Source: an uncultured Lachnospiraceae bacterium
Lineage (GTDB): Bacteria > Bacillota > Clostridia > Lachnospirales > Lachnospiraceae
Direction of reading: 5' to 3'
NCBI GenBank assembly: GCA_951800365.1
Contig: CATOJW010000019.1
Span: 1-63,128, forward strand
Length of the DNA stretch: 63,128 nucleotides
Shown here one piece after another: positions 59,275 to 60,300 of this stretch; position 1 is the stretch's first letter; the number at the start of each line of letters is the position of its first letter. The position numbers and the translations under genes are program-made. The notes under the pieces are model-generated. The model saw only the letters and a program-made list of their open reading frames with translations. It was not told the origin of the DNA and searched no databases.

Positions 59275-60300
59275 GCTGGATTTGGTTGGTTTATTTCCTC
59301 TTTCTGCTCCGAATCTCCAAACTGTAAGAAAGTCTAAGGCTTCTGATTTTTGTACATCCAACCGGACGAACCGGTGCGCAATTCGCCCGTACAACATCCG
59401 AAACTTTATTGGTATAAGGAAGACTACATCAACCACCATATCCTGCCTTCCTAAATCACGGGCTAAACACGCACCTTTTTTTGCACACACTGCATAAAAG
59501 CAGTATGTGCAAAAAATCCTAGTTTTTCCACAGAAACCTAAGACTTTCTAACAGTTTTCCGAAGTCGCAAAGAGGAAATAAACCAACCAAATCCAGCTAT
59601 TAACAACATAATAAAAACTTTAAAAACATAAAAACACAAAGACATAAATAATTCGATCATACCAAACACACTTTATTTTATTATCATTCATTTATATCAT
59701 TTGTATCAAAAAAATTTGTTACTAAACAAAAAGAACAATTACGAAAAGTGACTACAACATATAGAATATGTACATCTACCTAAGTCACTATATATTGTAC
59801 CATTCTTTTGAAAAATACCCTTTTGACGGGTTAATCATATTATTATAACAAAGTAAATCTTTGCCGTAAAAAATGCCGTCAATACTCTACGATACAGTGC
59901 CATTTTCAATAATAGACAATTTAGCTAACTTATTTCGCTTTTTGTCTTTTTATTTTCAAAAGCCAACAAACAGCCGGATTCTGGGATGGGTGGCATACTG
60001 CAGTGACTTTGGAGAAATGTTAAAAGTTCTTAGGCTTCTGCTAAAAATCTAGAATTTTTTGCACACGCTGCTTCCATGCAGTGTGTGCAAAAAAAGGGGC
60101 GTGTTTAGCCCATGCCACTTCCAAAAAGGCAGAACCTTATAACTGTTACAACCTTCCTTACACCAATAAAGTTTCGACCGCTGCATGGGCGAATTGCGCC
60201 CCGGTTCGTCCGGCTGGATGCACCAAAATTCAGAAGCCTTAGCACTTTTTACATTTCGGAAAGCGGAACAGCAGTATGCCACCCATCCCAGAATCCGGCG
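59275..60300. repeat. Composite repeat with highly divergent arms: A element (minus, 59275-59590), 370-bp AT-rich spacer, B element (plus, 59972-60300)
   Basis: A arms ggatttggttggtttatttcctctttctgc / gcaaagaggaaataaaccaaccaaatcc and B arms ggattctgggatgggtggcatactgc / gcagtatgccacccatcccagaatcc differ from all other copies but are perfectly complementary. The cores and G·U hairpin are retained. Confidence 0.85.

Follow-up and report, generated by a model that had tools for sequence, protein, structure and literature searches.

Towards the end of a 63,128-nt stretch of DNA from an uncultured Lachnospiraceae bacterium (contig CATOJW010000019.1 of assembly GCA_951800365.1; the whole stretch is referred to as the window), positions 59270-60310 consist of two inverted units of ~335 nt, A and B, which flank an AT-rich spacer of 366 nt. 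This locus is probably one copy, old and diverged, of a composite interspersed repeat which is mobile and non-autonomous. Each unit is closed by a terminal helix, P1, which spans 29-32 bp at this locus and is perfect or near-perfect, and the compensatory evolution of this closing stem is genuine and statistically overwhelming. The rewritten arms of units A and B seem best regarded as compensatory substitutions accumulated in two old sub-lineages of the repeat family.

With a hidden Markov model built from units A and B, nhmmer detected ~14 copies across the window. Scanning species-representative genomes for the core motif yielded at least 116 loci (824 kb), all from one uncultured Lachnospiraceae metagenome-assembled genome (MAG); these MAG loci contain at least 237 nhmmer matches, of which 182 are near full length. 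The family covers ~11% of the window and likewise ~11% of the MAG loci. For large structured repeats a share of about one tenth of a bacterial chromosome is unusual, and annotation as well as the discovery of non-coding RNAs tend to mask such repeats. Taken as a whole the family is rather likely a mobile non-autonomous element with hundreds of copies in some Lachnospiraceae. Two canonical classes with distinct arms can be distinguished, class 1 (GGACGCcAGAGGCGGTTTGCTCCTGTCCTTTGCCTGC) and class 2 (GGACGCCAGATTCGAAAACGGTGGGCAGCCTGC); most copies in the window are composites, the others being one full unit with a decayed partner. The family was not found in IMG/VR, JGI metagenome contigs, PLSDB plasmids or GenBank phages, and a phage or plasmid origin was discarded as there was no match in the phage and plasmid resources. 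Rfam 15 gave no match within the units at the gathering threshold and, at E-values up to 10, only spurious microRNA-like matches on the P3 hairpin. Literature searches returned no description of the repeat family.

Pairing and folding strand of the units

The first-pass annotation of this locus had described both arm pairs as exact reverse complements. This is correct for unit A (100% over 29 nt) and nearly so for unit B (97% over 32 nt). That the core and the terminal GGACGC/GGCGTCC are retained was confirmed, as the core of both units is conserved in the alignment and the ends were located at 59271-59276 and 60297-60303. The arms had also been said to share almost no sequence with the canonical arms; they are indeed diverged, but less far than this implies. 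Compared with the class-1 consensus 16 of the 28 P1 pairs of unit A are identical and 12 changed, and compared with the class-2 consensus 18 of 28 pairs of unit B are identical and 10 changed. Each of these changes affects both sides of the pair, giving 22 two-sided changes and not a single one-sided change. Arms of intermediate sequence exist in other copies, for unit B in L060 and L095 (GCCAGATTCTGGAACGG...), L034 (GCCGGATTGTGGAAGGG...) and L029, and for unit A in L079, L004, L025 and L040. The locus therefore represents one end of a continuum and not a unique rewrite.

The structure was derived from an alignment of 120 units with distinct arms. The consensus comprises 81 pairs, 48 of which show a two-sided change in at least one sequence, and 98.8% of all cells hold standard pairs. 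When the 3′ partners were shuffled this value fell to 84.1% (none of 500 shuffles reached the observed value), and sliding the partners by 1-3 columns reduced it to 45-53%. The covariation score was 0.409, compared with 0.145 for shuffled and 0.07-0.11 for slid partners. The fold is a rod, which is made up of the terminal helix P1 (28-33 bp), a second helix P2 (~25 bp) and a conserved branched tip (P3-P5). In both units of the locus P3 is a 17-bp helix flanked by T- and A-runs, and in the family alignment it is 99.9% paired. For the inner helices P2-P5 both sequence and pairing are conserved, whereas in P1 the sequence is conserved only in the outermost (GCYRGA/UCYRGC) and innermost (CUGC/GCAG) pairs. 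Two-sided changes were found in 26 of the 28 P1 pairs, with 97.3% of the P1 cells being paired, which bears out the earlier suggestion that the arm sequence is free as long as pairing is kept.

This freedom can also be expressed as a rate. Among units with a core identity of 0.90-0.95, two-sided changes amount to 0.073 per pair in P1 and 0.006 in the inner helices, one-sided changes to 0.087 and 0.027, respectively, and the value for unpaired core columns is 0.13 differences per site. Counted by site, P1 thus diverges at about the rate of unpaired columns, but its changes are coordinated: about half of the changed P1 pairs are already compensated, well above the expectation for independent mutations. 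Rate and compensation together indicate that inside P1 the sequence can vary freely, whereas pairing is constrained. The family hence offers a natural experiment on a helix which is constrained in pairing and length, but not in sequence.

One of the two strands is the folding strand, with the ends 5′-ACA-GCYRGA...UCYRGC-GUCC-3′ (the inner hyphens mark the outer end of P1). If the alignment is read on the strand ending in ...UCUGGCGUCC-3′, its non-Watson-Crick cells comprise 957 G:U and 77 A:C (117:43 in P1, 142:14 in P2 and 698:20 in the inner helices). As descent from common ancestors accounts for many of the G:U cells, these counts overstate the number of independent events; several separate positions agree on G:U, and a conserved A:C occurs at none. 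As the direction of the G:U cells is identical for window units of either genomic strand, a mutational bias from replication or transcription is excluded. Folding energy likewise favours the strand ending in GUCC: computed with RNA parameters it is lower on this strand in 119 of 120 units (mean difference -21.5 kcal/mol), and with DNA parameters in 113 of 120 (-5.9 kcal/mol). At the locus itself, unit A folds at -159.9 kcal/mol on the minus strand and at -129.7 kcal/mol on the plus strand, and unit B at -170.3 kcal/mol (plus) and -168.2 kcal/mol (minus), with z-scores of -11.5 to -15 for the two units against dinucleotide shuffles. The folding strands are minus for unit A and plus for unit B, both being directed away from the spacer. 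A strand asymmetry of this strength points to a single-stranded working form.

Probable mobility and rival explanations

In a sister species (SufBD 95% identical; L124/L125) the gene order is unchanged, but 11 kb contain no unit of the long family. Between the gene with an MCP-signal domain and the promoter of the transfer-messenger RNA (tmRNA) gene this species has ~157 nt of unrelated sequence, compared with the 1.04-kb composite of the window, and the gap between the response-regulator and histidine-kinase genes measures 41 nt there and 578 nt in the window, where it holds a unit and its collapsed partner. The absence of these two composites from the sister species shows that such elements are gained or lost. 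The spacer between units A and B has no similarity to intergenic DNA of the sister species. Contigs of the same species (L117-L123) are ~100% identical at the locus and hence uninformative. One of them, L121, agrees with the window across unit B and one half of the spacer, and from its position 4834 (window ~59786) continues into unrelated DNA with an ABC-transporter gene; this break reflects a rearrangement or an insertion within the spacer, or else a chimeric assembly.

The arrangement of the units is uniform. All 49 adjacent pairs are inverted and point their GGACGC ends outward; within 700 nt no pair is arranged otherwise, and the composite spacers range from 35 to 645 nt. The youngest, i.e., most similar, composites are 93% identical over 768 nt and have sharp ends: on the class-1 side GCTTTCACC stands directly before GGACGC, and on the class-2 side GCGTCC precedes a pyrimidine-rich stretch. 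The two units of one composite never share arms (0 of 47 at an identity of at least 0.8, compared with 13% of random pairs), a comparison which is not independent, as most composites descend from one class-1 plus class-2 ancestor. Among the units that lack an intact partner, 43 have the folding strand opposite to the G-rich (gene, leading) strand and 10 have it on that strand. A possible explanation would be preferential deletion of that unit whose hairpin is more stable on the lagging-strand template, and the core-deleted and collapsed units of the window fit such deletion and decay. Composites are often flanked by tandem remnants of the terminal motif, with two or three repeats of ...CTGGCGTCC (for example in L020 931-990, L026, L014, L017 and L067), and by a recurrent outer motif, CTCCAAAAGACTTATT, outside the GCGTCC end. 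These flanking sequences suggest repeated insertion or decay at the same sites, or further repeat modules. In one composite (L034 5654-5995) the spacer contains the leader and 5′ arm of a class-1-like unit about five times in tandem (CCAATTCACAGCGAGATGCGGTTTGCCCCTTTTCTCTACTGCCAG).

For a mobile element of this kind the conserved end motifs may be brought together by P1 in a single-stranded intermediate. A structure-specific enzyme could then act on the P1-closed form, following a logic like that of repetitive extragenic palindromic sequences (REPs) and their hairpin-forming doublets (REPINs) with the REP-associated tyrosine transposase (RAYT), of IS200/IS605 ends or of attC sites. Constraint in P1 is limited to its length, its pairing and a few pairs at either end, and its interior drifts by compensatory two-sided change. 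Mobility of the family could explain the fast turnover of intergenic DNA in gut Lachnospiraceae.

Several observations weigh against a mobile element. No mobilising enzyme was found in the window or the sampled MAG loci; in particular, no HUH/Y1 transposase was seen in the window or among the multi-copy open reading frames (ORFs) of the 824 kb of MAG loci. Two families of multi-copy ORFs, the only such candidates, do occur near units in the MAG loci, a TnpB-like protein and a small tyrosine recombinase, both of which could be bystanders. Neither target-site duplications nor clean empty sites were found at nucleotide resolution, the flanking intergenic DNA of the sister species being too diverged for exact insertion boundaries, and none of 16 well-delimited composites, whose boundaries are known within a few nt, has a flanking direct repeat. 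That nearly all copies strongly conserve the inner helices could also reflect selection on each copy for a host function, and not just selection at the time of transposition, and the strictly conserved tandem U.G/G.U pairs and conserved internal loops look more RNA- than DNA-like. Unit B taken alone folds nearly equally well on either strand; the strand asymmetry is a property of the family and not of unit B itself.

The tyrosine recombinase consists of the catalytic domain only (192-196 aa; L018 3266-3856, L068 6466-7056 and L084 419-997). In L018 and L068 its gene is bracketed by inverted repeats of ~35-44 nt (AAATGCAACACTTGTTAATAAAATGTTGCATTT), and it could be a small invertible or mobile module; all three copies are near repeat units. 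A transposase as cargo between the units was also considered and rejected, as nothing but DUF6881 and DUF6756 ORFs or housekeeping genes was found in the longer spacers. Within the window a 237-aa protein (19251-19964, minus strand) combines an N-terminal MerR-type helix-turn-helix (HTH_17) with a serine-recombinase (Resolvase) domain and represents an IS607-like TnpA. Its gene lies in an AT-rich island (GC content 0.32) with no tnpB beside it, and a GGACGC motif is found ~80 nt upstream.

It is possible, albeit clearly less probable than a mobile element, that the units encode a structured RNA of ~340 nt, as genes or as mobile genes, and are transcribed divergently from the spacer. P1 would then be a closing or processing stem, either cut by RNase III or protecting the ends, and free to drift while paired. 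This would agree with the folding strands pointing away from the spacer in 49 of 49 composites, with the much larger strand advantage under RNA than under DNA parameters and with the conserved tandem G.U pairs and internal loops. TATAAT-like boxes are found ~30 nt upstream of many class-1 units, and sigma-70-like sites occur in the spacer of the locus at 59870-59842 (TTTACG-17-TATAAT) and 59709-59680, both on the minus strand. However, promoter conservation gives a weak or ambiguous signal, many copies have degenerate versions of the putative -10 boxes, spacers can be as short as 35 nt, and the promoter-like sites in the spacer of the locus are at background (four found, 3.3 expected from shuffled sequence). 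The units match no Rfam family, the units without intact partner are mostly antisense to the local genes (the 43 and 10 given above), and hundreds of copies coming and going between sister species would be unexpected for ordinary RNA genes.

A different kind of explanation does without selection for pairing and supposes that complementarity is restored mechanically, by fold-back copying of one arm or by mismatch correction within the hairpin. Two-sided changes are indeed frequent even among close relatives, and the locus with its 22 two-sided and no one-sided changes would fit. Yet one-sided changes in P1 do exist and are biased to G:U on one strand (117 compared with 43 A:C), which argues for selection on the folded strand and not for arm copying, and the inner helices share this strand bias without the rapid turnover. 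We consider a purely mechanical restoration improbable.

Elements with the same ends are not restricted to the long units. A second family of ~150-170 nt has a different core of ~100 nt between identical ends (5′-ACAGC plus arm, and arm′ plus GCGUCC-3′), and its arms are likewise variable and likewise paired. In the sister species the gap between the genes for UvrD and a small acid-soluble spore protein (SASP; L124 3040-3780) holds an inverted pair of short units with unrelated arms, each perfectly paired. The design of stem plus end motifs is hence common to at least two types of core. As a tentative and rather speculative extension, both families might form a new superfamily of structure-addressed mobile elements of Firmicutes, in which an arbitrary ~30-bp stem would clamp 5′-ACA-GCYRGA and UCYRGC-GUCC-3′ together and an enzyme would process one folded strand, be it single-stranded DNA or a transcript. 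The RNA version, if true, would mean that hundreds of processed structured RNAs of ~270 nt are expressed per genome.

The same UvrD-SASP gap is occupied by a long-family composite in the species of the window, and such differing occupants suggest that whole elements can be replaced at one site. This might be taken to support the first of the two alternatives of the first-pass annotation, that arms are exchanged as paired modules, for which recombination or cassette swapping between copies would be the means. Module exchange is not supported by the correlation of arm identity with core identity over all unit pairs (Spearman 0.71). Units A and B have the most diverged cores of all, with an identity of at most 0.84 to any other unit; arms and core having diverged together argues against module exchange, as do the intermediates which connect variant and canonical arms. 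Swapping of arms is accordingly very unlikely.

The idea that the arms are programmable guides, complementary to targets in the genome, plasmids or phages, is scarcely tenable. It derives from the pattern alone, i.e., variable sequence between constant motifs, to which may be added that a TnpB-like gene lies downstream of three MAG units with A-like arms. Searches in the window, the MAG loci and viral and metagenome contigs gave nothing significant. Neither arm recurs in the window at up to three mismatches (nor did any shuffle give a match), a sensitive search extended to 887 kb (window plus MAG loci) returned no significant match, and the arms of A and B have no exact match in IMG/VR viral contigs. 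The A arm likewise has no exact match in JGI metagenome contigs, a weak negative as the core motif of the family itself is absent there. Canonical-arm matches outside of recognised units are leftover solo arms. Moreover, both arms of a folded unit are fully occupied by pairing with each other, and their variation is graded and follows the phylogeny of the core. The TnpB-like proteins (412-453 aa, with a Cas12f1-like TNB domain; L004 3437-4798, L079 3281-4519, L025 5696-7021) are encoded ~250-340 nt downstream of the respective unit in the same orientation and without overlap. Their genes have their own promoter and represent one duplicated segment, and the adjacent units resemble unit A in arm subfamily and in the first ~15 nt past GCGTCC (TTGCGAAA.AT). 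Self-complementary variable arms need therefore not imply programmability.

Coordinates and neighbouring genes

Table 1. Features of the locus 59270-60310 and further copies of both repeat families in the window.
Feature	Position	Strand	Partner	Description
Unit A	59270-59600	-		Related to class 1; nhmmer match and alignment to other copies
Unit A, better-folding strand	59602 to 59269	-		3′ end ...CCAGCGUCC
Unit A, outer conserved GGACGC	59271-59276			GCGUCC on folding strand; GUCC unpaired 3′ of P1
Unit A, P1 arm	59275-59303		59569-59597	29 nt, 100% complementary
Unit A, P1 partner arm	59569-59597		59275-59303	
Unit A, P2 arm	59319-59345		59531-59557	27 nt, 89% complementary; sequence conserved family-wide
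Unit A, P2 partner arm	59531-59557		59319-59345	
Unit A, P3 hairpin	59477-59516			T-run, GCACACACTGC, loop, GCAGTATGTGC, A-run
Spacer between A and B	59601-59966			366 nt, AT-rich, unique to this copy; canonical spacers ~60-115 nt
Unit B	59967-60310	+		Related to class 2; nhmmer match and alignment
Unit B, family-type folding strand		+		3′ end ...CCGGCGUCC
Unit B, P1 arm	59973-60004		60268-60299	32 nt, 97% complementary
Unit B, P1 partner arm	60268-60299		59973-60004	
Unit B, P2 arm	60014-60040		60231-60257	27 nt, 89% complementary
Unit B, P2 partner arm	60231-60257		60014-60040	
Unit B, P3 hairpin	60055-60094			
Unit B, outer conserved GCGTCC	60298-60303			GGCGTCC at 60297-60303
Composite	13083-13660			Core-deleted class-2 unit 13083-13222; class-1 unit 13324-13622
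Canonical composite	33466-34260			Class-1 unit 33495-33795 (+); class-2 unit 33921-34260 (-)
Class-2 unit with class-1 remnant	37600-38054			
Canonical composite, opposite orientation	43725-44502			Class 2, then class 1
Class-1 unit	47247-47487			Internal deletion
Partial class-2 unit with class-1 remnant	50074-50482			
Composite	53254-54216			Class 1 53284-53601; class 2 53871-54216
Class-2 unit with collapsed class-1 remnant	55808-56295			Between response-regulator and histidine-kinase genes
Class-1 unit	62786-63128			Reaches window end
Short family	150-326, 3585-3768, 10871-11041, 50605-50788			All on one strand
Short family, remnant	30289-30353			Same strand as the other short units

The genes around the repeats are ordinary chromosomal ones, nearly all on the minus strand, and include those for PolA, RuvAB, a penicillin-binding protein, the thi operon, SufC/SufBD, HPr, GerA and a two-component system. 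The next features downstream of unit A are the genes for tmRNA (ssrA; 58756-59116) and a tRNA (58659-58732), both on the minus strand. A near-consensus promoter (TTGACG-17-TATAAT, 59164-59192, minus strand) lies between unit A and ssrA, and the composite thus sits just upstream of the tmRNA promoter.

Some further features of the window deserve mention. An 846-aa protein (25145-27685, minus strand) with MVP_shoulder and Vault_3 domains resembles the major vault protein. The gene of a 1086-aa surface protein with BspA-type leucine-rich and choline-binding repeats (20177-23437, minus strand) contains tandem DNA repeats of 66 nt at 20230-20757. An ordinary thiamine pyrophosphate riboswitch (17446-17556, minus strand) precedes the thiamine operon, whose genes encode hydroxyethylthiazole kinase, thiamine monophosphate synthase, phosphomethylpyrimidine kinase and ThiC.

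Comparison with known systems

Among known repeats, REPs, bacterial interspersed mosaic elements (BIMEs) and REPINs come closest, being likewise high in copy number, intergenic and non-autonomous. REPs carry a conserved unpaired tetranucleotide at the foot of the stem (GTAG or CGTC; PMC3733652), to which GGAC/GUCC would correspond in the family described here, and REPINs share with it the inverted pairs of units around a spacer (49 of 49 pairs here), the compensatory pairing and the single-strand logic. Nevertheless, REPs are palindromes of 20-40 nt, whereas the units are ~335 nt long, with a conserved branched core and stems of 28-33 bp, and their tag is GGAC/GUCC in place of a GTAG or CGTC palindrome. 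The two REPs of a REPIN pair mutually, whereas a unit of the present family folds by itself and never shares arms with its partner. Neither the window nor the multi-copy ORFs of the MAG loci included a cognate RAYT gene, and the host is a Firmicute, while tagged REPs have been described mostly from Proteobacteria (PMC3733652). An identity with the CGTC-tagged REPs was considered, as CGTC is contained in GCGTCC, and rejected as a superficial resemblance, since those REPs have stems of only 8-9 bp (PMC3733652).

With the attC sites of integrons the family shares the primacy of structure over sequence, conserved terminal boxes, a variable stem interior and a specific folding strand. It has, however, neither the R and L boxes (RYYYAAC/GTTRRRY core sites) nor IntI, the window being without any Phage_integrase gene. 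Between the elements there are syntenic housekeeping genes and no cassettes, and the units, with their conserved core, are three to five times longer than attC sites.

MITEs (miniature inverted-repeat transposable elements) and the palindrome-associated transposable elements (PATEs) of IS200/IS605 are similar in being non-autonomous, intergenic, variable in presence and bounded by long terminal inverted repeats, here P1 plus P2. A target-site duplication was not seen in the family, which is a likeness to IS200/IS605 and, together with inverted repeats that are not sequence-conserved, a difference from MITEs. The interior of these repeats varies among copies of one genome, which is at odds with a transposase recognising the ends by their sequence, and no parent insertion sequence was found for the family. 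The ends of IS200/IS605 elements are two separate small hairpins which do not pair with each other, no TnpA of this type was seen, and the Rfam models for omega-RNA of TnpB and for HEARO gave no match. If the units act as RNA, the stems flanking rRNA that are cut by RNase III offer another parallel, as there, too, a long helix of 5′ and 3′ flanks encloses a structured RNA and drifts by compensatory change; the family differs from them in having a copy number and a turnover of the mobile-element kind.

In its logic the family is thus REPIN-, BIME- and attC-like, but in size and end motifs it differs from these systems, and neither RAYT nor IntI was seen in the window. Finding the mobilising enzyme or an RNA product would provide a counterpart in Firmicutes to the pairs REPIN-RAYT and attC-IntI.

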